A stretch of DNA of 64,000 bases from an uncultured Candidatus Rokubacteria bacterium (GTDB lineage Bacteria; Methylomirabilota; Methylomirabilia; Rokubacteriales; CSP1-6), in the NCBI GenBank assembly GCA_963762145.1, contig CAVXJS010000019.1, positions 160,001 to 224,000 on the forward strand, in the 5' to 3' direction. Both the position numbers and the translations under genes were made by a program. Position 1 is the stretch's first letter. Each line of letters begins with the position of its first letter. A model generated the notes under the pieces. That model was not told the origin of the DNA. It did no database searches and saw nothing but the letters and a program-made list of their open reading frames with translations. Shown here one piece after another: positions 52,769 to 62,003 of this stretch.

Positions 52769-53544
52769 TGCCGGGCCGCATGGCCGGCCGCGTGGCCCTC
52801 GTCACCGGCGGCGGGGGCGGCATCGGAGAGGCCACCGGCCGGCTATTCGCGGAGGAGGGCGCGGCGGTCACGCTGCTCGACGCCGACGCGGCCGCGGTCG
52901 AGTCCGCGGCGGCCGGCATCCTGAGCGCGGTGCCGGGGGCGCAGGTCCAGGCCTTCGTCGGTGACGTCACCCGGGAGAGCGACGTCCGTCGAATCATGGA
53001 CGAGGCGTCGGCGCGCTGGGGTGGGCTCCACACGCTGGTCAACGTGGCGGGCGTGCGCGTCTACGCGCCGCTGGCCGACGCGGACGCGGCGGACTGGGAG
53101 CGCATCATCGGGGTCAACGTGCTGGGCACCGCCCACTGCTGCAAGGCCGCGCTGCCGCGGCTCCGCGCGTCGGGACGCGGCACCATCGTGAACGTCTCGT
53201 CGGTCTACGGGGTCATGGGCCGGACCGGCATGGGCCAGTACGACACGACCAAGGCGGCGGTGCTCGGGTTCACGCGGGCCCTCGCGGTGGAGGAGGCCCC
53301 GCAGCGCATCCGCGTCAACGCGGTGTGCCCCGGCGGCACCATCACCCCCTACCACATCCGGCGCGCCGGGGCGCGCGGGGTCTCCGAGGCCGAGATGCGC
53401 ACCCAGCGCGCGGGCGACAACCTGCTCGGGCGCTGGGCGGAGCCGCGCGAGGTGGCGTACCCGATCCTGTTTCTCGCCGGGGACGAGTCGTCCTTCATCA
53501 CGGGCGCCACCCTGATGGTGGACGCCGGCCGCTCCATCTTGTGA
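52768..53544 (+). CDS. SDR oxidoreductase
   Basis: TGGGGGIG, NVAG, YDTTK, RVNAVCPG. Confidence 0.9.
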   Translation: MPGRMAGRVALVTGGGGGIGEATGRLFAEEGAAVTLLDADAAAVESAAAGILSAVPGAQVQAFVGDVTRESDVRRIMDEASARWGGLHTLVNVAGVRVYAPLADADAADWERIIGVNVLGTAHCCKAALPRLRASGRGTIVNVSSVYGVMGRTGMGQYDTTKAAVLGFTRALAVEEAPQRIRVNAVCPGGTITPYHIRRAGARGVSEAEMRTQRAGDNLLGRWAEPREVAYPILFLAGDESSFITGATLMVDAGRSIL

Positions 53545-54665
53545 CCGCGTCCGACGCGGCGGCGCGCCTGCGGTCGGTGGACGCGCTGCGCGGGCTCACG
53601 GTGGCCGCGATGGTGCTGGTGAACAATCCGGGCACGTGGAGCGCGGTGTACGCGCCGCTCCGGCACGCGGCCTGGCACGGGTGGACGCCCACCGACATGG
53701 TCTTCCCGTTCTTTCTCTTCGTGGTGGGAGTCTCGATCCCGCTGGCTCTGGGGCCGGCGCTCGAGCGAGGCGCGACCGGGCTGCCCGCGCGCGTCGTCCG
53801 ACGGGCCGCGGTGATCTTCGGGCTGGGCCTGCTGCTCCACGCGCTGCCTTTCTTCCCGCTCGCCGACCTCCGCATCCCGGGCGTCCTGCAGCGCATCGCG
53901 GTCTGCTACCTGCTGGCCGCGCTGCTCGTGCTGGCCACCGGCGGCGCGCACGGCTGGCGCGCGCAGGGGGCCGTCGCGGGAGCGCTCCTGGTGGGGTACT
54001 GGCTCGTGATGACGCGAGTGGCCGCGCCCGGCCACGTGGCCGGCGACCTGAGCCCCGAAGGCAACCTCGCCGGCTACGTCGATCGGCTCGTGCTCGGCAC
54101 GCGACACATCTGGCGGGCTTCCCGGTTCTACGATCCGGAGGGCATTCTCAGCACCCTGCCCGCCACCGCGACGACGCTCCTGGGCGTGCTGGCCGGCCAC
54201 TGGCTACGGGCCGGCCGGTCCGGAGCGCGGGTCGTCGGAGGGCTCGTGGCGGCCGGGCTCGCCGCGACGGCGCTCGGCTGGCTGTGGGGTCTCTCGTTCC
54301 CGGTGAACAAGTCCCTGTGGACCAGCTCGTACGCGCTGCTGATGGCGGGCCTGGCCGCGCTCGCGCTGGCCGCCTGCTACTGGATCATCGAGACGCGCGG
54401 CCGCCGCGGCTGGGCCGCGCCCTTCGCGGTGCTGGGGGTCCACGCGCTCACGCTGTTCTTCCTGTCCAGCCTGATGGCGAAGCTCCTGTTGATCGTCCGG
54501 GTGGGCCCCGGCGGTCCGCGGCTCCACGCGTGGCTGTTCGAGCACGGCTTCGCGCCCTGGGCCGCGCCGGTCAACGCGTCGCTGGCCTACGCGCTCGTGT
54601 ACGTCCTGCTGTGGTGGGGGCTCATGTGGGCGCTCGACCGGAGCGGGCTGCGGCTGCGGGTCTGA
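53541..54665 (+). CDS. HGSNAT/NagX-like membrane acyltransferase
   Basis: RSVDALRG, MVLVN, HAAWHG…DMVFPFF, GVLQRIA, DPEG, NKSLWT. Confidence 0.88.
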   Translation: MTASDAAARLRSVDALRGLTVAAMVLVNNPGTWSAVYAPLRHAAWHGWTPTDMVFPFFLFVVGVSIPLALGPALERGATGLPARVVRRAAVIFGLGLLLHALPFFPLADLRIPGVLQRIAVCYLLAALLVLATGGAHGWRAQGAVAGALLVGYWLVMTRVAAPGHVAGDLSPEGNLAGYVDRLVLGTRHIWRASRFYDPEGILSTLPATATTLLGVLAGHWLRAGRSGARVVGGLVAAGLAATALGWLWGLSFPVNKSLWTSSYALLMAGLAALALAACYWIIETRGRRGWAAPFAVLGVHALTLFFLSSLMAKLLLIVRVGPGGPRLHAWLFEHGFAPWAAPVNASLAYALVYVLLWWGLMWALDRSGLRLRV

Positions 54666-55269
54666 CGAGCGGCGGTCGGGCGCGGCTCACGAAGGGATTG
54701 CCCCGCAGCCAGAAGCGCCACGGCTGCGCGACCCAGTCCCCCGCGTAGTCGATGCCGACGCGCGGGCCGGCCGCGATGGCGTCCGCGGAGACGCGGCGGC
54801 CCGGCTCGAGCCAGATCCGGTCGCCGAGGAGATCGGCGCCGTCGAGCCGGCGGTCGATGCCGAGCGCGATGCAGAGCTTGCCCGGGCCGCTGGTCAGCTC
54901 GCCGGGCGCCGCGCCGCCGCGCCGCCGGCGCATCAGGTCCACGCCCTCGAGCGGCTCCAGGGCGCGCACCAGGACCGCGTGGGGCACGTCCGCGACATTG
55001 GTCACCACGTTGAACTGGTGGTACATGCCGTACACGAAGTAGACGTAGGCGATCCCGCCGCGCGCGTACATCGTCTCGGTGCGGCGGGTGCGCCGGCCCC
55101 CGTAGGCGTGGGAGGCGCGGTCCTCGGGGCCCCGGTAGGCTTCCGTCTCCACGATGATCCCGGACACGCGCCGCCCGTCGCGCGCGCGCGCCACCAGCCG
55201 GGTGCCCAGGAGCCGCCGGGCGAGCGCCACCACGTCCGCGCGCGTGTAGAACGCGCGCCCGAGCTTCAC
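54622..55269 (-). CDS. 3-methyladenine DNA glycosylase (MPG/AAG family)
   Basis: IVETEAY, YVYFVYGM, AVLVRA, GPGKLC, GPRVGI, PWRF. Confidence 0.92.
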   Translation of the reverse strand: MKLGRAFYTRADVVALARRLLGTRLVARARDGRRVSGIIVETEAYRGPEDRASHAYGGRRTRRTETMYARGGIAYVYFVYGMYHQFNVVTNVADVPHAVLVRALEPLEGVDLMRRRRGGAAPGELTSGPGKLCIALGIDRRLDGADLLGDRIWLEPGRRVSADAIAAGPRVGIDYAGDWVAQPWRFWLRGNPFVSRARPPLVRPAAAARSGRAPT

Positions 55270-57278
55270 GGCGTCCGCGGGGTGCGCGCCGCGCCCGGCT
55301 CGATCGGGAAGAGGCGGTTCTCGCGCATCAGGCGATCGGTGGTCTCGTACAGCGCGAGGAACTCGCGGGTGAGGCGGCTCGCCACCTCGGGGTGCTCGCG
55401 GGAGAGATCGGCGGGCGGCATCGCGTCGCCGTCCACCGCGAGCAGCTCGGCCTCGCCCGCGGTCAGCCGGTACCGCAGCGCGAAGCCGTCCTTGAAATAG
55501 AACGTCTCCTTGGTGTCGCCGCTGATGATCCCGGCGGTGACCGGAGGCTCGAAGAGGCTCCGCCCCATGCCCGCGTAGGCCCGGTCGCCCTCGAGGAGGG
55601 AGCCGATCGTCGGCAGCACGTCCACCTCGCTCGCGACCCGGTCCGGAAGCCCGGACCAGCGGGCGCGCGCGCGCGCGATCGGAGGCCCGGCCAGGATCAG
55701 GGGAAGGCGGAGGCGCTCGAGCGGCAGGGAGCCGAAGGTCGGGCCGGTGTGATCGCCGATCACGACCAGCAGGGTCTGGTCGAAGTCGGGCCGCGCCGCC
55801 CGCAGCCGCTCGACGAACGCCCGAATGCTGTCGTCGGCGTAGCGGAAGGTGCCGAGCGGGCTGTTGCCGAGGGGCATCGGCGCCTCGGGCGGCACCTGCC
55901 ACGGCGAATGGCTCGTCCCGGTCATCACGTAGAGGCTGAAGGGCCCCGGGGTGGCGGTGACCGCGCGCGCGGCCTCCAGGAGCAGCGGGCCGTCGTTGAT
56001 GCCGAGCGGCCCGATCGCGGCCGGGCCCAGCGGCTTCTCGAGCGCGTCGAAGCCGGCGGCGCGGAAGCCCAGGTTGCGGAGAAAGGTCGTGATCTCGGCG
56101 GTGCGGTGGCGGAAGCCGGAGAAGGCATAGTGCTGCGCGCCGGGCGAGGTCAGCATGCGCGGCAGCGAGGCGAAGTAGGTGCCCATGATCGACTGGGAGA
56201 GCCGCACGCCGCTGCCGCCCAGGGCGTGGGTCCAGTGAACGCTCGTGAGCGTCGCGAAGACCGCGCCGTCCGTGGAGGGGAAGCTCTGATAGATGCGCGG
56301 GAAGTAGAGGCCCTCGGCCGCGAGCGAGCGCAGGAACGGCATCACCGGCCCCTGCGGCTCGTCGTGCTCCAGCAGGGTGGCGCCGAGGCCCTCGACCTGG
56401 ATGAGGACCACGTTCCGGATCCCGAGGCCGGCCGTCCCGCGCAGCGTCCGCAGGAGCGGATACGGCCGATCGCCCTCCGGGAGGCCGAGCAGCCGCTGGG
56501 CGAGCGGGAGCGCGTCCACGGTCTCGACCCGATACGGCGGACGCCCGCCCCCCATCGCCACCGGCAGGTACTCGCGGATCAGGTCCCAGAGGGGATTGAC
56601 CACCGCCTGATTGAGCACGTAGTCGTCCAGCGCCATGTGGTGCCGGCTCGCGATCCACGCGACCTCCGTCTTGGGCCGGCCGCCCACCTGCTTGACCGTG
56701 ATCGGCTGCGCCATCGTGAGGGCGAACAGCGCGAGGACGCCCAGCGCGAGCGCGGGAGCGTACCACGGGCGCCACAGGTCGTGGCGGTGGCCGCCGAGCC
56801 GGCGGACGTGGCGCGCGGCGAGCGTGACGAGGCCCGCCAGGACGAGCAGCACCAGCGCCACCAGCAGCGGATGCTCCCGGAGAAAGGGTCGCAGCGCCAC
56901 CCAGATGTCGCCGGGCTCGGCGAGATACGCGAAGAGCATCTCCCAGAGGTGCTGGTTGCGCTCGCGGACGAAGAGCAGATTGATCGCCGCCACGGTGGCG
57001 TTGATCGTGGTGATCACCCAGAGCCCCGCGCCCAGGACGCGCCCGCGCACGCGACGGGTGAGCAGGATGAGTCCGCCCAGGATCAGCAGCTCGAGGCCCA
57101 GGAGGGCCAGGTCCAGGCGGAGGCCGTGGAGCAGCACCGCGGGCACCTCCCCCCACGCGGCGCGCCGGGCGAACCACGCCACGAACAGCAGGCGGTAGGC
57201 GGCCAGCAGGAGCAGGTTGAGGACGACCAGGCCGAGCGCGTGGGCGGTCAGCCGGAGAGCGCGTGGCCCCCCGCTCAT
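55266..57278 (-). CDS. LTA-synthase-like membrane-anchored alkaline-phosphatase-superfamily enzyme
   Basis: About five N-terminal TM helices; NVVLIQVEG, PSTDG (candidate Thr nucleophile), TSHSPW, RYADD, IGDH. Confidence 0.82.
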   Translation of the reverse strand: MSGGPRALRLTAHALGLVVLNLLLLAAYRLLFVAWFARRAAWGEVPAVLLHGLRLDLALLGLELLILGGLILLTRRVRGRVLGAGLWVITTINATVAAINLLFVRERNQHLWEMLFAYLAEPGDIWVALRPFLREHPLLVALVLLVLAGLVTLAARHVRRLGGHRHDLWRPWYAPALALGVLALFALTMAQPITVKQVGGRPKTEVAWIASRHHMALDDYVLNQAVVNPLWDLIREYLPVAMGGGRPPYRVETVDALPLAQRLLGLPEGDRPYPLLRTLRGTAGLGIRNVVLIQVEGLGATLLEHDEPQGPVMPFLRSLAAEGLYFPRIYQSFPSTDGAVFATLTSVHWTHALGGSGVRLSQSIMGTYFASLPRMLTSPGAQHYAFSGFRHRTAEITTFLRNLGFRAAGFDALEKPLGPAAIGPLGINDGPLLLEAARAVTATPGPFSLYVMTGTSHSPWQVPPEAPMPLGNSPLGTFRYADDSIRAFVERLRAARPDFDQTLLVVIGDHTGPTFGSLPLERLRLPLILAGPPIARARARWSGLPDRVASEVDVLPTIGSLLEGDRAYAGMGRSLFEPPVTAGIISGDTKETFYFKDGFALRYRLTAGEAELLAVDGDAMPPADLSREHPEVASRLTREFLALYETTDRLMRENRLFPIEPGAARTPRTP

Positions 57279-58663
57279 CGCACCCCGAAGAGCGACGCGA
57301 AGAACTCCACGCGCTGTCCGAAGGTGGCGGCGCTCGCGTCCGCCCAGATGCTGATGAGCGCGAAGAATGTCCATACGCCGGCGATCTGACGGATCCGCGA
57401 CGGCAGCGTGGTGGGGGTGGCCGCCCCGGCGCCCCGCCGCTGCTGCTCGCGCCGCATCGAGACGTAGATGCCGAGGCTCAGCAGCAGGCAGTAGAACGAG
57501 CGGGCCTCGAGCCACGGGCGGAGCCCGGGCAGGTCGAGGGTCAGCAGGAACGTATCGTTGAACACGATGTGGTAGTAGAGGTTGCCGAAACCCGCGGCGG
57601 CGAGGGTCGCGGCGAGCATGCGCAGCGCCGGCCGCCCCCGGAAGCGGCGCACGTAGGTCGGGAAGAAGAAGAAGTCGACCAGCATCTCCTTGAAGTAATA
57701 GTAGTAGCGGTTCCAGAACTCGACCAGGGACGGGGCCAGGAGCGGCTTGTAGGTGTTGCGGAAGATGTTGAACCCGAAGAGCCGGAGCACCCCGATGATC
57801 TCGTGCCCCCGCGCGGCCACCTTCAGCACGTCCCAGATCAGCCCGGCGTAGAGCGCGCTCCACGCCGCCGCCCACGGCGCCCCGGCGCCCGCGGGCAGGA
57901 GCGCCTCGACGCGCGGTACCCCGAGCCCGTACGCGCTCCAGGTCCCCCGCGGCTCGGCGTAGACCAGCCCGGCCATCAGCCCGAGGAGACCGTGGTAGAT
58001 CGCGGCGAGCGCGAGGAGCTTGAGCCCGGCGAGCTGCGAGCGGGCGAGGGCCTCCTCGCTCGTGGCCTCGTGCCGCGCCAGATGATCGAGCCCCTTGCCG
58101 TAGGGCACGCCGGTACCGCCGTAGGCGGGATAGAGGTAGAGCAGGTGATCGGAGAAGCGGGTGCCCGCCATGCGCCCGCGCTGGCCGGAGAGGAGGAGGT
58201 AGCCCAGGCGCCAGAGCAGGAAGGCCAGCGCCAGCACGAGCCCCGAGAGCGTGAGGGCGACCACGCCCCCGCCGTCGGGGACGAGCCAGCCCAGGACCAC
58301 GATCGTCCAGAAGGCGCCGTGCAGCCAGAGCTGGGGCCGGCCGCGCACGATCGCGGGCAGGGACGCGAAGCGGCGCGCGGCCACGTAGACCGCCACCGCC
58401 ACGACGAGGCAGAGCAGCACGATCAGCGCGGCGGCGAGCGGGCCGGCCGGGGCGCGGACATCCACCGCGGGCGCCATCTCCTTGAGGGGTCGCCGCACGA
58501 CGATGTAGAGCGCGCCCAGGGCGAGCAGCGCCCGGCGCCGCCGCGGCGTCAGGCGGGAGAGCAGCGGCCCGGTCCACGCCTGCCAGCGCGCCACGACGGC
58601 GGGATTCTCGTGGAGCTGGGTCAGTCGCCGCGTCGTGCCCCGGAAGCCCGCCGCGCCGCTCAC
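57275..58663 (-). CDS. MBOAT-family acyltransferase (DltB/AlgI-like, divergent)
   Basis: Polytopic membrane protein; LFGF…NTYKPLLAPSLVEFWNRY and GNLYYH. Confidence 0.75.
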   Translation of the reverse strand: MSGAAGFRGTTRRLTQLHENPAVVARWQAWTGPLLSRLTPRRRRALLALGALYIVVRRPLKEMAPAVDVRAPAGPLAAALIVLLCLVVAVAVYVAARRFASLPAIVRGRPQLWLHGAFWTIVVLGWLVPDGGGVVALTLSGLVLALAFLLWRLGYLLLSGQRGRMAGTRFSDHLLYLYPAYGGTGVPYGKGLDHLARHEATSEEALARSQLAGLKLLALAAIYHGLLGLMAGLVYAEPRGTWSAYGLGVPRVEALLPAGAGAPWAAAWSALYAGLIWDVLKVAARGHEIIGVLRLFGFNIFRNTYKPLLAPSLVEFWNRYYYYFKEMLVDFFFFPTYVRRFRGRPALRMLAATLAAAGFGNLYYHIVFNDTFLLTLDLPGLRPWLEARSFYCLLLSLGIYVSMRREQQRRGAGAATPTTLPSRIRQIAGVWTFFALISIWADASAATFGQRVEFFASLFGVR

Positions 58664-58911
58664 CGGACCTCCCGCTCGATCAGGTCCAGGATGCCGCTCA
58701 CCGAGGTGAGCTGCTCCGGCTCCAGGCCGACCGTCGCGAAGTCGATCCGGTACTGCTCCTCGAGAAAGGCCACGATCTCGAGCAGGGCCAGCGAGTCGAT
58801 CAGCCCGCTCTCCACGAGGCTGTCGGTCTCCGCCACCGAGTCGAGCGGCCGGTCGGGCTTCTGGATGGTGCGCAGGAACTCGAGCACCCGCTCCCGGTGG
58901 CGCTGGCGCAC
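58660..58911 (-). CDS. Acyl carrier protein (DltC-like)
   Basis: LVESGLIDSLALLEIVAFLEEQY phosphopantetheine attachment motif. Confidence 0.88.
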   Translation of the reverse strand: MRQRHRERVLEFLRTIQKPDRPLDSVAETDSLVESGLIDSLALLEIVAFLEEQYRIDFATVGLEPEQLTSVSGILDLIEREVR

Positions 58912-60420
58912 TCAGCGTCCCTGCAGGATGCGGGCGAGATCGAGGGGCGGGCGCCCCGCGCAGGCCTCGCGCACCGCCTCGCGGCTCACCTTGCCGCGCT
59001 CGGATCGCGGGATCGCGTCCACCAGCCACCACCGCGCCGGCAGCTTGCCCTCGGCCAGCCGCCCGCGGATCCACGCGTGCGCCTCGCGCACCGCCGCGTC
59101 GTCGCCTTCGGTGAGCGCGATCGCGAGGCCCACGTTCTGCCCGTAGAGCGGATCGTCCACCGCGAAGGCGCAGACGTCGGCGACGCGTGGGCAGCCCTCG
59201 GCCGCCGCGTCGACCTCCGCGGGGGAGATCTTGAGCCCGCCCTTGTTGATCTCGTCGCGCTCGCGCCCGCGCAGGTGGAGCCAGCCGCGCTCGTCGAGGA
59301 GCCCCAGGTCGCCGGTGGCGAAGCGGCCGTTCTGGATCGCCCGCCGGGTCAGGTCGTCCTGCCCGAGGTAGCCGCGCATGAGCGTCGGGCTCTCGATCCA
59401 CACCTCGCCGACCTCACCCGCCGCACACGGCGCCGCGTCGGCGCGCTGCACGTGCAGGACCGCGCCCCATGGCGGCCCGATGAGGCCGTCCGCCGGGGTG
59501 AACGGGCCGTCCGAGGTGCCCGCCACCCAGCTCCCGGTCTCGGTGAGGCCGTAGGTGTTGAAGACCTCCTGCGTGCCCGCCCAGCCGCGAATGCTCTCCC
59601 ACAGCGTCGCGGGCAGGGGGGCCGAGCCGCAGTGCACTCGCCGGAGCGTGCCGCCGCGCGGCGGGCGGGCCACCCGGAGCGCGAGGCGCCACATCGCGGG
59701 CACCGACGACAGGAAGCTGATCCGGTGCTCGTCGATGATCGTTCCCAGCCGGAGCAGCAGATCGGGCCGGAAGGGCGGCGTGATGAACAGGTCCCGGCCG
59801 GCGAGCCAGGGGAAGAGGCTGTTGCAGATGAGCCCGTGCCCGAAGTGGGTCGGCAGGAGGCACAGCGTGCGGGCGTAGGCCTCGAGGCCGAGCGCGTCCC
59901 GCAAGGCGTTCCACCGGGCGGCCAGCGAGGCGTGGGTGTGCACGACGCCCTTGGGCACGCCGCTGGACCCGGAAGTGAAGAGGACGAGCGCGTCGCACTC
60001 CGGGCGGGCCGCGTCCGCCGGCAGATCGGCGGGTGAGAGCGGCTGGGTGGCGTCGACGACCGTCACTCGGGGCGGGAGCGCGCGGGCGATCACGCCGTCC
60101 GTGCCGTCGTCCACCACCGAGAAGCGGGGCGCCACGGTCTCCACGAGGCGCTCGAGCTCGACGCGGGTGAGGGTCGGGTCCAGGGGCACCGCGACGGCGC
60201 CCGATCGCCAGATCGCCAGGAGCTCGGCGAAGAACTCGAGCCGGTTGCCGAAGTGCAGCAACACGCGGTCGCCGGGGTGGAGGCCATCGCGGCAATAGCG
60301 GGCGGCCCGGGCCGAGACCTCGCGTGTCACGACCGGCGGAGTCCAGTGCCGACCGGTCAACGGCTCGGTGAGCGGGCCGACGGTCAGCAGGACGCGCGCC
60401 TCTTCATGACCGTTCTGCAT
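58912..60420 (-). CDS. Class I adenylate-forming enzyme (acyl-CoA/ACP ligase)
   Basis: FTSGSSGVPKG, YGLTET, TGDLG, GRERDEINKGG, PRSERGK; start uncertain. Confidence 0.88.
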   Translation of the reverse strand: MQNGHEEARVLLTVGPLTEPLTGRHWTPPVVTREVSARAARYCRDGLHPGDRVLLHFGNRLEFFAELLAIWRSGAVAVPLDPTLTRVELERLVETVAPRFSVVDDGTDGVIARALPPRVTVVDATQPLSPADLPADAARPECDALVLFTSGSSGVPKGVVHTHASLAARWNALRDALGLEAYARTLCLLPTHFGHGLICNSLFPWLAGRDLFITPPFRPDLLLRLGTIIDEHRISFLSSVPAMWRLALRVARPPRGGTLRRVHCGSAPLPATLWESIRGWAGTQEVFNTYGLTETGSWVAGTSDGPFTPADGLIGPPWGAVLHVQRADAAPCAAGEVGEVWIESPTLMRGYLGQDDLTRRAIQNGRFATGDLGLLDERGWLHLRGRERDEINKGGLKISPAEVDAAAEGCPRVADVCAFAVDDPLYGQNVGLAIALTEGDDAAVREAHAWIRGRLAEGKLPARWWLVDAIPRSERGKVSREAVREACAGRPPLDLARILQGR

Positions 60421-60536
60421 GATACCGCGAGGGGCGCACGGGGAGAAAACACCACGGGCGCGGCCGAGAAGGGACCGCGCCCGTGATCCGACGCCGGCGG
60501 ACTACCCGGCGCCGCCTGCTGCGTTGGGCCGCCCCG

Positions 60537-60758
60537 CTAGCGGCGCGCTCCCACCACGAGCAGAACCACTCCGCCGGCGAGCGCCAGCCCGCCCAGGATC
60601 GGCGGGAGGGGGATCGTCCGCTCCTTGTCGGCGGTCGCCTTGATCGGGCCCAGATCGATGATCTTCTCCCGCGTGGTATAGGTGATGCCCTGGTAGGCGA
60701 GGGACACCACCCCGATGGCGATCAGCACGATGGCGATGATGAGGGTTCCGCTCTTCAT
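60537..60758 (-). CDS. Small two-TM membrane protein (DUF3185-like)
   Basis: LAYQGITYTTREKIIDLGP…TIPLPPILGG. Confidence 0.75.
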   Translation of the reverse strand: MKSGTLIIAIVLIAIGVVSLAYQGITYTTREKIIDLGPIKATADKERTIPLPPILGGLALAGGVVLLVVGARR

Positions 60759-60771
60759 GCGATCTTCTCCG

Positions 60772-61374
60772 TCAGAAGCGGGCGGTGAAGCGCCCGGCCT
60801 TGCTGTCCTTGTGGCGCTGCTCGACCACTTCCCAGTTGACGTTCTCGAGAAAGGCCTCGATGTAGTCCTCGCGGCCCCCGGCCCCGTGATCCACCATGAA
60901 GGCGTGCTCGAACACGTCGAGCACCACGACCGGATCGAAGCCGGCCGGGTGGCCCTGCTCGTGACTCGACACCCACCAGTTGAAGAGACCGCCGGTGGCG
61001 GGATCCCGGTACAGGATGGCCCAGCCGACGCCGCGCATGCCGCCGGTCTTGGCGAAGTCCTCGCGCCAGGCGCCCACCGAGCCCCAGGCCGCGCCCAGAT
61101 CCACCGAGAGATCGCTTCCCGGGGAGAGCTTGGAGCCCCCGGCGAGGTTGCCGAAGTAGTACTCGTGCAGCACGATGCCGTCGACCTCGAACCCGAGGCG
61201 CCGCTTCAGCTCGGCCCAGACGGGTGTGCCGGGCTCCGCCTTGGCGGCGCCATCGAGGAGACCGTTCGCGGCCTTGACGTAGCCCTCGTAGAGCTTCCAG
61301 TGCTGGTCGATCTGATCGTCCGAGATGCCCGCCAGCGCCTTCGGCTTGAGATGATCCTGGACCTTGAAGTTCAT
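60772..61374 (-). CDS. Fe/Mn superoxide dismutase family protein
   Basis: QHWKLYEGYV, LHEYYF and DVFEHAF metal ligands. Confidence 0.88.
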   Translation of the reverse strand: MNFKVQDHLKPKALAGISDDQIDQHWKLYEGYVKAANGLLDGAAKAEPGTPVWAELKRRLGFEVDGIVLHEYYFGNLAGGSKLSPGSDLSVDLGAAWGSVGAWREDFAKTGGMRGVGWAILYRDPATGGLFNWWVSSHEQGHPAGFDPVVVLDVFEHAFMVDHGAGGREDYIEAFLENVNWEVVEQRHKDSKAGRFTARF

Positions 61375-61388
61375 GACGTGCTCCGGCC

Positions 61389-61538
61389 CTAGATCGGCCG
61401 TCGACCCTGGATGACCCGGATCAGGACGACCGCGATGGCGATGAGGAGCAAGAGGTGGATGAAGCCGCCGAGCGTGTAAGAACTGACCATGCCCACCGCC
61501 CAGAGCACCAGCAAGACCACGAAGATCGTCCACAGCAT
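61389..61538 (-). CDS. lmo0937-family small membrane protein
   Basis: MLWTIFVVLLVLWAVG…GGFIHLLLLIAIAVVLIRVIQGRR; GGAGG RBS. Confidence 0.85.
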   Translation of the reverse strand: MLWTIFVVLLVLWAVGMVSSYTLGGFIHLLLLIAIAVVLIRVIQGRRPI

Positions 61539-61601
61539 GTGAGTCATCCTCCCATGTCCTGCGAGTAGGAATGCTCGATCCCGTTCGTGCGTGTCCAGTA
61601 C

Positions 61602-61616
61602 GCACACGATGTGCCA
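61602..61616 (-). promoter_or_regulatory. sigma54 promoter motif of the lmo0937-SOD-DUF3185 operon
   Basis: Minus strand TGGCAC-ATCGT-GTGC (GG-N10-GC; one mismatch in the -12 element). Confidence 0.6.
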
Positions 61617-61742
61617 CCCCGGGTCAAGCAGGCGAAGTGCGTGATTCGTGACGCGGAAGTCGCGTTGATGCAGCGCGCACCGGCACGACGGCGCCCGGGG
61701 GCGGGTCAGGATTACCGGGTAGAAGGGTTCCGTTCCCGCAGG

Positions 61743-61758
61743 TGGCACGTCACTTGCG
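61743..61758 (+). promoter_or_regulatory. sigma54 promoter motif (divergent partner)
   Basis: TGGCAC-GTCAC-TTGCG; the 14-nt core is identical to the one at 32458-32471. Confidence 0.65.
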
Positions 61759-61772
61759 ACCGTTCAGGCGTC

Positions 61773-62003
61773 ATGAGAACTCCCCGACCCCTGGAGATGG
61801 AGATCGTGCTGCCGGTGGCGGCGCGAGCAACGTTTGGATTCGTGGCCGGCTTCACCCGCGCGATGACCACGACACTGGGCGCCCTCGTGCTCATGACGAG
61901 CCTGGTGCCTGTGTTCGCGGTGTGCATGGCCGCGCTGGGCGCGCGGCAACCGGACGAGGAGCGATTCAGGTCGTCGGCTGACTCCGGTCGAGAATCCGCC
62001 TGA
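61773..62003 (+). CDS. Possible small membrane protein
   Basis: Hydrophobic 76-aa ORF directly downstream of a sigma54 motif; overlaps the maltokinase 3' end by 38 nt. Confidence 0.45.
   Translation: MRTPRPLEMEIVLPVAARATFGFVAGFTRAMTTTLGALVLMTSLVPVFAVCMAALGARQPDEERFRSSADSGRESA

Follow-up and report, generated by a model that had tools for sequence, protein, structure and literature searches.

A four-gene operon in a soil genome of an uncultured Candidatus Rokubacteria bacterium joins an adenylate-forming ligase, a stand-alone carrier protein and a divergent DltB-like membrane protein to an LtaS-like enzyme. The first three genes recur as a trio in many diderm phyla, where the LtaS-like gene is a frequent, not an obligate partner. 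The operon occupies positions 55266–60420 on the minus strand of a stretch of 64,000 nucleotides (positions 160,001 to 224,000 of contig CAVXJS010000019.1, assembly GCA_963762145.1), which is called the window here. We consider it about evenly balanced whether the four products form a Dlt-type, carrier-dependent transmembrane acylation relay joined to an LtaS-type transferase, with both acting on the same acceptor. We infer every chemical step of this reading, the identity of acid and acceptor and the convergence on one target from gene identities, folds, conserved residues, operon structure and gene association.

Organization of the operon

In the direction of transcription the operon begins with LIG, an adenylate-forming ligase of the acyl-CoA-ligase type (502 residues, 58912–60420). 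It is followed by ACP, a stand-alone carrier protein of 83 residues (58660–58911), by MEM, a divergent DltB-like membrane protein with the predicted fold of a membrane-bound O-acyltransferase (MBOAT; 462 residues, 57275–58663), and by SULF, an LtaS/OpgB-like putative membrane phospho-alcohol transferase of 670 residues (55266–57278). The genes are tightly packed: the GTG start of ACP comes straight after the stop codon of LIG, the GTG start of MEM shares four bases with the stop codon of ACP (GTGA), and the ATG of SULF shares four bases with the stop codon of MEM (ATGA). All four frames are open and of full length in the window. A first-pass annotation made from the sequence had described an adenylating enzyme, a carrier protein with the motif GLIDSL, an MBOAT and an LtaS-like enzyme in abutting or overlapping genes, and this is the layout we found. 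The G+C content is 0.72–0.75 across the region, and many spurious frames are open as a result. The four-gene arrangement itself is not a product of chance since the same four genes recur in the same order in relatives.

The membrane protein belongs to the MBOAT superfamily by fold and profile

Standard family models do not recognize MEM. No Pfam family was assigned at E ≤0.01, including MBOAT (PF03062) and MBOAT_2, and the sole match in NCBIfam was an unrelated model far under its cut-off. None of the 120 listed homologues carries a precomputed Pfam family, and those named by their source are all hypothetical proteins. Searching the PDB with the single MEM sequence gave no match (0), and a profile of 25 sequences gave one chance match at E 1.7.

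An AlphaFold2 model of MEM was built on 25 homologues and reached a mean predicted local distance difference test (pLDDT) of 83.7 and a predicted template modelling score (pTM) of 0.82. Foldseek placed DltB first (6bug with E 5.8e-5, and 8jem), followed by PORCN, HHAT, LPCAT3, MBOAT7, DGAT1 and ACAT; the top 19 rows were MBOATs throughout. With VIA-align the model matched DltB at Z 21.1 (root-mean-square deviation 4.1) and 20.4 over 360 aligned residues. Some two dozen MBOAT entries scored between Z 10.8 and 21, and the next unrelated fold had Z 6.6.

Comparison of sequence profiles pointed in the same direction. When 134 members of the MEM family were aligned to 52 canonical PF03062 proteins, hhalign returned a probability of 95.6% (E 1.1e-8) over 233 columns; smaller profiles gave 86%. 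The family carries the motif GH..G.LR..GF..FRNTYKPLL....EFWNRYYYYFKE..(D/E)FFF.P, which aligns gap-free to the canonical ..IG....G...P.NF..P......E(Y/F)WRRWHM(T/S)L..W.RDY.F.P, so that EFWNRYYYYFKE..D.FFFP of MEM stands opposite E(Y/F)WRRWHMTL..RDYVFLP. In the ESM Atlas the nearest cluster is automatically named 'MBOAT family protein' and has no Pfam family, which we treat as a lead only. By predicted fold and by profile MEM is a member of the MBOAT superfamily, though missed by the standard models. The earlier call of an MBOAT is thus borne out by the DltB-like fold and by hhalign only, and not by Pfam or NCBIfam.

The genome of the window also carries two canonical MBOAT genes. One lies on the same contig, C19 (L081:1099-2517), and encodes an AlgI/DltB-type protein of 472 residues that ends in the shuttle motif FVYANF. 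The other, on contig C10 (L082:1003-1977), encodes 324 residues with EFWRRYN where the RWH motif is expected.

The ligase is of the acyl-CoA-ligase type

LIG matches the Pfam families AMP-binding (PF00501, E 2.2e-58) and AMP-binding_C (PF13193). The ANL core and the motif of the C-terminal catalytic lysine are both present, with TSGSSGVPKG, YGLTETG and PRSERGKV conserved in 61 homologues. In NCBIfam the best matches are FadD7-family and long-chain fatty-acid ligases, all far under their cut-offs. The best matches in the PDB are malonyl-CoA synthetase (4fuq) and oxalate-CoA ligase (5ie0) at E about 1e-43, followed by FadD13, feruloyl-CoA synthetase and MenE; DltA is not among the 60 PDB matches listed. 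Judged from these relatives LIG is an enzyme of the acyl-CoA-ligase type and not of the amino-acid or DltA type, which agrees with the first-pass annotation.

The substrate pocket gives a further indication. Amino-acid-activating enzymes carry an Asp at the position of the LIG motif PTHFGHGL, where the two dicarboxylate ligases have IYHTHGL and LFHVHGL. The motif fits a substrate other than an amino acid and names none. The pocket motifs are conserved in the 61 homologues, which come from many phyla. Many of the loci described below carry a lyase-type gene next to the trio, and comparing LIG sequences from loci with this gene (25) and without it (36) revealed no systematic difference in the pocket motifs. 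The substrate of LIG is therefore probably the same in all lineages.

These matches also bear on the possibility that acylation is directed at a lipid, with LIG and ACP as the source of the acyl group and the MBOAT acylating released diacylglycerol or the head group of the donor phospholipid, in the service of membrane-lipid homeostasis or of a new lipid and not of a polymer decoration. LtaS, OpgB and EptA all transfer from a glycerophospholipid and release diacylglycerol, and this is the sole feature known to be shared by the subfamilies found as partners of MEM. DGAT1, LPCAT3 and MBOAT7 are strong structural matches of MEM (Z 15–18), and the NCBIfam matches of LIG are fatty-acid ligases. However, the best structural match is DltB, an enzyme whose acyl donor is a carrier protein; the nearest solved relatives of LIG act on small dicarboxylates, and many trios are accompanied by a gene of small-acid lyase type. 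LIG also has 502 residues, and fatty acyl-AMP ligases typically carry an insertion. We regard lipid-directed acylation as distinctly improbable.

The carrier protein

ACP scores 20.7 bits against the PP-binding model, just under the cut-off of 20.8. Matches in NCBIfam were weak and included acyl carrier proteins and DltC, with 20.1 bits for the DltC model PRK05087 (cut-off 68). In the PDB it matches peptidyl and acyl carrier proteins with a best E of 2.9e-06, the peptidyl carrier proteins being its best solved relatives. The phosphopantetheine arm is presumed to sit on Ser40 within GLIDSL. ACP is on these grounds a predicted carrier protein and not an orthologue of DltC.

Peptidyl carrier relatives, and the fact that stand-alone pairs of ligase and carrier are common in natural-product pathways, would also suit a system outside the envelope, in which the trio makes or exports a carrier-bound metabolite and SULF is an unrelated neighbour. 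Yet no condensation, ketosynthase or thioesterase gene occurs among the recurrent neighbours of the trio; the conserved unit comprises three or four genes only, and the neighbours are envelope enzymes. Such a role is, in our judgement, very improbable.

The LtaS-like enzyme

SULF contains a sulfatase domain (PF00884, residues 288–562, E 2.1e-21), and by inspection about five hydrophobic stretches are found in approximately the first 200 residues. A profile of 20 relatives gave 12 matches in the PDB at E ≤0.001. The uncharacterised Vibrio protein VP1736 was best (5.8e-24), followed by LtaS from Staphylococcus aureus, Bacillus subtilis and Listeria (1e-21 to 1e-22) and next by the lipoteichoic acid primase, so that four LtaS/LtaP structures fell between 1e-15 and 1e-22. 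No phosphoethanolamine-transferase chain was among the 12 matches. Glu296, Thr336, Asp509 and His510 are invariant in the 20 relatives; their motifs suggest that they correspond to the nucleophile and the metal-binding residues of LtaS. The nucleophile column holds T or S across 19 more distant partners.

Against the LtaS equivalog model of NCBIfam SULF reached 25.6 bits, compared with a cut-off of 970. OpgB models matched weakly, and only with partner proteins from other loci. SULF forms a separate subfamily that has conserved N-terminal residues of its own. A complex prediction of MEM with SULF residues 1–290 scored 0.00, which says nothing either way.

Accessory proteins of the Dlt pathway

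An FXYXXF motif is the site of an acyl-tyrosine intermediate in DltX and at the C-terminus of PatA-type MBOATs (PMC12148441). MEM has no C-terminal FxYxxF motif, and within the last 25 residues only one of 270 MEM-family members contains it. No DltX-like open reading frame is present in the operon. A frame of 73 residues at 60537–60758 on the minus strand, which contains two hydrophobic segments and matches DUF202 weakly, was considered as a DltX analogue and rejected: it ends in VVGARR without an aromatic C-terminal motif, and a terminator-like hairpin lies between it and the operon.

We also searched for the SGNH enzyme that acts downstream of such a motif. A search for DltD (PF04914) in the genome of the window, which is 88% complete, gave no match, and the four matches to the SGNH family PF13472 in this genome are all on contigs other than that of the window (C19). 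Among the annotated recurrent neighbour clusters of the MEM loci no SGNH family occurs. The statement of the first-pass annotation that the operon has neither an SGNH gene nor a recognizable DltX-like peptide therefore stands, and no SGNH partner emerged from the annotated recurrent neighbours of homologous clusters either. Its description of an LtaS-like enzyme in place of DltD is apt for the position of the gene; as to function, nothing shows SULF doing the job of DltD.

Recurrence of the trio and its partners

The MEM family comprises 1053 clusters at 50% identity (E ≤0.001). In 185,579 species genomes 256 places were confirmed, and the best 79 of these 256 loci were examined for neighbouring genes. 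Hosts include Methylomirabilota/Rokubacteria, Binatia, Verrucomicrobiota, Thermodesulfobacteriota and many Proteobacteria, Accumulibacter among them. The LIG family lies beside MEM in 69 of the 79 loci and ACP in 65, several of the misses being due to contig ends. Two gene orders were observed: ligase-carrier-MBOAT in Rokubacteria, Binatia and delta-type lineages, and MBOAT-ligase-carrier in Beta- and Gammaproteobacteria, Verrucomicrobiota and Desulfarculaceae.

Of the 79 loci, 26 include an LtaS-like gene. Using profiles of all partner types, a membrane gene of the alkaline-phosphatase superfamily was found in the flanks of 43 loci and within 3 kb of MEM (≤3 kb) in 40. The other partner types are EptA/CptA-like proteins (10 loci), an 834-residue phosphodiesterase-family protein (5 loci of Verrucomicrobiota) and one further sulfatase-family protein (L006). 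Because the genome of the window has no more than 5 sulfatase-family genes in its 6.3 Mb, the enrichment of this superfamily beside MEM is large, though related loci are not independent. The LtaS-like partners themselves fall into several subfamilies with only about 20% identity between them. In a maximum-likelihood tree built rapidly from 83 MBOAT rows, with the thorough search unfinished, the LtaS label changes at least six times, and the clade of the window holds 20 labelled rows of 25. The LtaS-like gene was expected from the earlier annotation to be conserved with the other three. It is indeed a frequent partner, and not a fixed fourth member, its place being taken elsewhere by EptA/CptA-like or other alkaline-phosphatase-superfamily genes, by a lyase-type gene or by nothing.

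The lyase-type gene encodes a protein of 285 residues of the phosphoenolpyruvate (PEP)-mutase/isocitrate-lyase family and directly follows the carrier or the MBOAT gene in about 25–27 loci, two of the 27 looking like shadow frames. The protein is 66–70% identical across phyla, carries the lyase-type motif EDQKRPRRCGH, and its gene shows translational coupling to that of the carrier or the MBOAT (e.g. L007:11154-12011 and L009:6525-7361). The genome of the window has no orthologue of it, the best match being 31% identical.

In Betaproteobacteria we found a clade of MEM paralogues (L049, L053, L071, L035, L047 and L065) with no ligase or carrier of their own. Half of them (L049, L053 and L071) lie directly upstream of an LtaS-like gene. 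In five of the six metagenome-assembled genomes concerned, judged by their record titles, the full trio is present on another contig (L053/L042, L071/L056, L047/L026, L035/L068 and L065/L080), and one ligase-carrier pair may thus feed two MBOATs.

Some other loci stand out for their composition. In one metagenome-assembled genome of Deltaproteobacteria four tandem MBOAT-family paralogues lie between the carrier gene and the LtaS-like gene (L045:4891-10829). A locus labelled Deferrimicrobiaceae (L005) falls with its whole operon inside the Rokubacteria group, at 82% identity for the ligase, 79% for the LtaS-like protein and 67% for the MBOAT, which could reflect gene transfer or a binning error. 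In some betaproteobacterial and Binatia loci, genes for PAP2, a RisS-type sensor kinase and an ArnT-like PMT_2 protein are found near the trio (L074:5076-5762, L068:3374-4813, L050:565-2217 and similar); these are typical neighbours in lipid A remodelling.

The variety of partners lends some weight to the view that the operon encodes two independent, co-regulated envelope modifications. The trio would then act at one site and SULF at another site or on another molecule, for example at different positions of lipopolysaccharide, with no coupling between them. In favour of this, the partner may be LtaS-like, EptA/CptA-like, the 834-residue protein or absent; lipid A remodelling genes accompany some loci (PMT_2/ArnT-like 7, PAP2 4, and the sensor kinase), and deletion variants and stand-alone loci retain SULF in the absence of MEM. 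On the other hand, MEM and SULF share their 4-base overlap throughout the genus, and pairs of a MEM paralogue and an LtaS-like gene, with no ligase or carrier of their own, occur in Betaproteobacteria. A single superfamily is moreover enriched beside MEM across at least six label changes, beyond what a neighbourhood of envelope genes alone would bring about. We consider two uncoupled modifications possible, if rather doubtful.

Proposed mechanism

In the coupled relay LIG would adenylate a carboxylic acid in the cytoplasm, probably a small one and not an alpha-amino acid, and would load it as a thioester onto the phosphopantetheine arm at Ser40 of ACP. MEM, located in the inner membrane, would dock the loaded ACP at its cytoplasmic face and hand the acyl group on, by way of its core, to an acceptor at the periplasmic face. 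Since DltX, an FxYxxF shuttle and an SGNH enzyme are all missing, MEM would most likely acylate the final acceptor directly, as eukaryotic MBOATs do. SULF, with Thr336 and its metal site, would move a phospho-alcohol, most likely glycerol-phosphate, from a membrane phospholipid to an envelope molecule. Both activities would meet on one target, giving an acyl-(glycero)phosphate decoration in a diderm, analogous to the D-alanyl-glycerophosphate of lipoteichoic acid. The first-pass annotation had proposed in similar terms that an acid is activated, relayed through the MBOAT and attached to a target handled by the LtaS-like enzyme. The gene identities, the ligase type and the MBOAT speak for that proposal; the acid, the acceptor and the coupling are its conjectural part.

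A different order of events is conceivable in a variant that likewise needs neither shuttle nor SGNH enzyme and in which the LtaS-type enzyme would be the actual partner of the MBOAT outside the cytoplasm. Here the MBOAT would place a small non-amino acyl group on a phospholipid head group, for instance on the free glycerol of phosphatidylglycerol, and the LtaS-like enzyme, or an EptA-like one in other lineages, would transfer the pre-acylated phospho-alcohol onto lipopolysaccharide or an envelope glycan. The product would be a teichoic-acid-like decoration, chemically undescribed, in diderms of many phyla. We think this variant unlikely.

In current models of the acylation of bacterial envelope polymers (PMC12148441), an MBOAT works together with an SGNH transferase and a tyrosine-based shuttle motif. 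The MEM family keeps the entry by a Dlt carrier protein without shuttle or SGNH enzyme, and would, if active, represent a third working mode for bacterial MBOATs. An active system would also imply a hitherto unknown acyl decoration of the diderm envelope, likely to alter the surface charge and the resistance of the cell to cationic compounds. With four genes here and three elsewhere, the module is compact.

Observations that weigh against the coupled relay

Several observations on active-site residues, on partner genes and on the loss of the cassette weigh against the coupled relay. The first concern MEM itself. Counted on a HMMER alignment of L081 to DltB, the histidine of the RWH motif of DltB is residue 289 and that of the WHG motif residue 336. 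We take His336 to be the universally conserved MBOAT histidine and the position of His289 to be Asn or Asp in eukaryotic MBOATs. The position of His289 is Tyr321 in MEM and varies in the family: among 241 members in which it was located (270 examined) it is Y in 180, H in 25, F in 18, N in 6, D in 4 and another residue in 8. In addition, two hhalign runs, a global and a low-threshold one, disagree on the stretch beyond residue 340 of MEM, both with low confidence.

The candidate for the universal histidine is His365. It is retained in 130 of 134 MEM-family members, and the spacing from the conserved Pro335 is 30 residues, compared with 28 in L081 and 33 in DltB (counted); the equivalence with His336 draws on this spacing and conservation only, which counts among the points against the relay. 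Tyr323, Lys325, Glu326, Pro335, Asn361 and Ser402 are invariant in all 134 of 134 members, and this conservation, like that of His365, speaks in favour of MEM as a DltB-like protein. The idea that the catalytic histidine is replaced by a tyrosine was dropped: Tyr321 takes the place of His289, and His365 may correspond to His336. An acyl-tyrosine formed in cis at position 321 is unlikely since Phe occupies the position in 18 of the 241 members.

Further points concern the partners and the host. No alkaline-phosphatase-superfamily gene was found in the flanks of 36 of the 79 MEM loci, some of them on short contigs, and many trios carry the lyase-type PEP-mutase-family gene instead, of which the genome of the window has no orthologue. 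The OpgG/MdoG family was not found in this 88%-complete genome, which makes periplasmic glucans of the OpgG type improbable as the acceptor in this host. A scan of the operon region for sigma-70 promoters recognized none.

The remaining points come from the loss of genes around SULF. For this we collected 79 metagenome loci with the SULF profile and sorted them; their contigs may represent the same populations repeatedly. The MBOAT adjoins SULF in 20 of the 79. In six, carrier and MBOAT are deleted: L106, L108 and L110 retain only the last MBOAT codons, with intact ligase and SULF frames, and in L107, L139 and L140 approximately the first 42 carrier codons are fused to the last seven MBOAT codons. 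The related genome G011, in which SULF is present without MEM, is counted among the deletion forms. A larger deletion, from the end of the ligase to about residue 320 of SULF, is found in seven loci (L132-L137 and L150). Four others have SULF without the MBOAT (L121, L125, L128 and L166), L128 with only a ligase beside it. Owing to contig ends 14 loci could not be classified, and 28 are distant sulfatases with ≤31% identity and none of the other genes. SULF stands without MEM in such loci, and can thus exist, and perhaps work, without the relay.

Distribution in related genomes

We surveyed 31 related genomes, consisting of that of the window, 18 others of the same genus and 12 from other genera of the order. 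MEM is present in six of the 31, all of the genus of the window (5 of the 18 others), and SULF in the same six and in G011; the 12 genomes from other genera yielded neither gene. MEM and SULF abut in 6/6 genomes of the genus that have MEM. In one genome of the genus a TGA lies within the SULF match (G001:C17:30759-32747), possibly a pseudogene or a sequencing error.

The cassette is accessory and under loss in some lineages, where SULF can persist without the relay. It could accordingly be asked whether it is also decaying, and non-functional, in the genome of the window. This would suit its patchy presence in the genus, its absence from the 12 genomes of other genera, the several independent deletion forms in metagenomes and the TGA inside SULF of one relative. 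But in the window the four frames are open and of full length, the conserved residues are intact and the overlaps of start and stop codons are preserved, and we give hardly any credence to this explanation.

Flanking features and transcription

The hairpin mentioned above is located at 60451–60487 on the minus strand, about 30 nt upstream of the start of LIG, and consists of 15 pairs followed by a T-run. It marks the upstream edge of the operon and separates it from the 73-residue membrane frame and from a superoxide-dismutase-like gene. Its position before LIG leaves no space for a usual promoter. The operon may therefore be transcribed by read-through from the preceding unit; alternatively, the hairpin may have a regulatory role. 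No Rfam family was detected within 54000–62000 at E ≤0.1. Short contigs covering parts of all four genes with 90–99% likeness were found in one true RNA library and three doubtful ones; as contigs they cannot show transcription, and such libraries may contain DNA. A plasmid collection searched with MEM gave no match.

Downstream, a gene for a methylpurine DNA glycosylase lies 20 nt beyond the operon. Convergent with it on the plus strand, at 53325–54665, lies a gene for a membrane acyltransferase-like protein of the HGSNAT_cat/DUF5009 type (E 5e-10).

Comparison with known systems

Neither the trio nor an MBOAT coupled to LtaS in diderms is described in the full-text literature searched, from which subscription journals are mostly absent; for this literature, the earlier suggestion of a possibly undescribed system holds. 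The closest known system is found in the Dlt pathway of Firmicutes. Both encode an adenylating enzyme, a small stand-alone carrier and an MBOAT of DltB fold together, and each has a link to an LtaS-type enzyme, which in Firmicutes makes the glycerophosphate polymer that receives D-Ala. In contrast to the Dlt pathway, the ligase here is of the acyl-CoA type and not DltA, and DltX, FxYxxF and DltD are lacking. The position of His289 is Tyr or variable, the Pfam MBOAT model does not detect MEM, and in this diderm host the operon itself includes the LtaS-like gene. Features of DltA, DltX and DltD were looked for and not found, which places the operon outside the Dlt pathway. At its cytoplasmic end it would work as that pathway does.

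With LtaS and OpgB (MdoB), SULF shares an extracytoplasmic sulfatase-type domain behind a hydrophobic N-terminal part. Its best solved matches include LtaS, and Thr336, Glu296, Asp509 and His510 are invariant among its relatives. It differs in scoring far under the equivalog cut-offs, in forming a subfamily of its own and in the lack of an OpgG match in its genome, and it has no known context of polymer synthesis. The AlmE-AlmF-AlmG system of Vibrio cholerae adds glycine to lipid A with a DltA/DltC-like ligase and carrier, and likewise represents a Gram-negative use of such a pair to acylate an envelope lipid. There, an amino acid is the group transferred, and the transferase AlmG, an enzyme of the lipid A acyltransferase type rather than an MBOAT, works at the cytoplasmic face.

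The MBOAT-SGNH acylation pairs of bacteria comprise PatA/PatB and, in the model outlined in PMC12148441, also alginate and cellulose acetylation. As proposed for the operon, the MBOAT of these pairs moves an acyl group across the cytoplasmic membrane to an envelope target; according to the same account they use acyl-CoA, a C-terminal FXYXXF tyrosine and handover to an SGNH enzyme (PMC12148441). Here, by comparison, the donor would be a carrier protein, the shuttle motif occurs in 1 of 270 members and no SGNH gene is among the annotated recurrent neighbours, so that the operon is not in the MBOAT-SGNH class. Eukaryotic MBOATs (PORCN, HHAT, LPCAT3, MBOAT7 and DGAT1) differ in their acyl-CoA donors, in their fatty acyl groups and in using no carrier protein. 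They share the fold with MEM at Z 15–18, and their direct transfer to the final acceptor is the mode that we propose for the operon.

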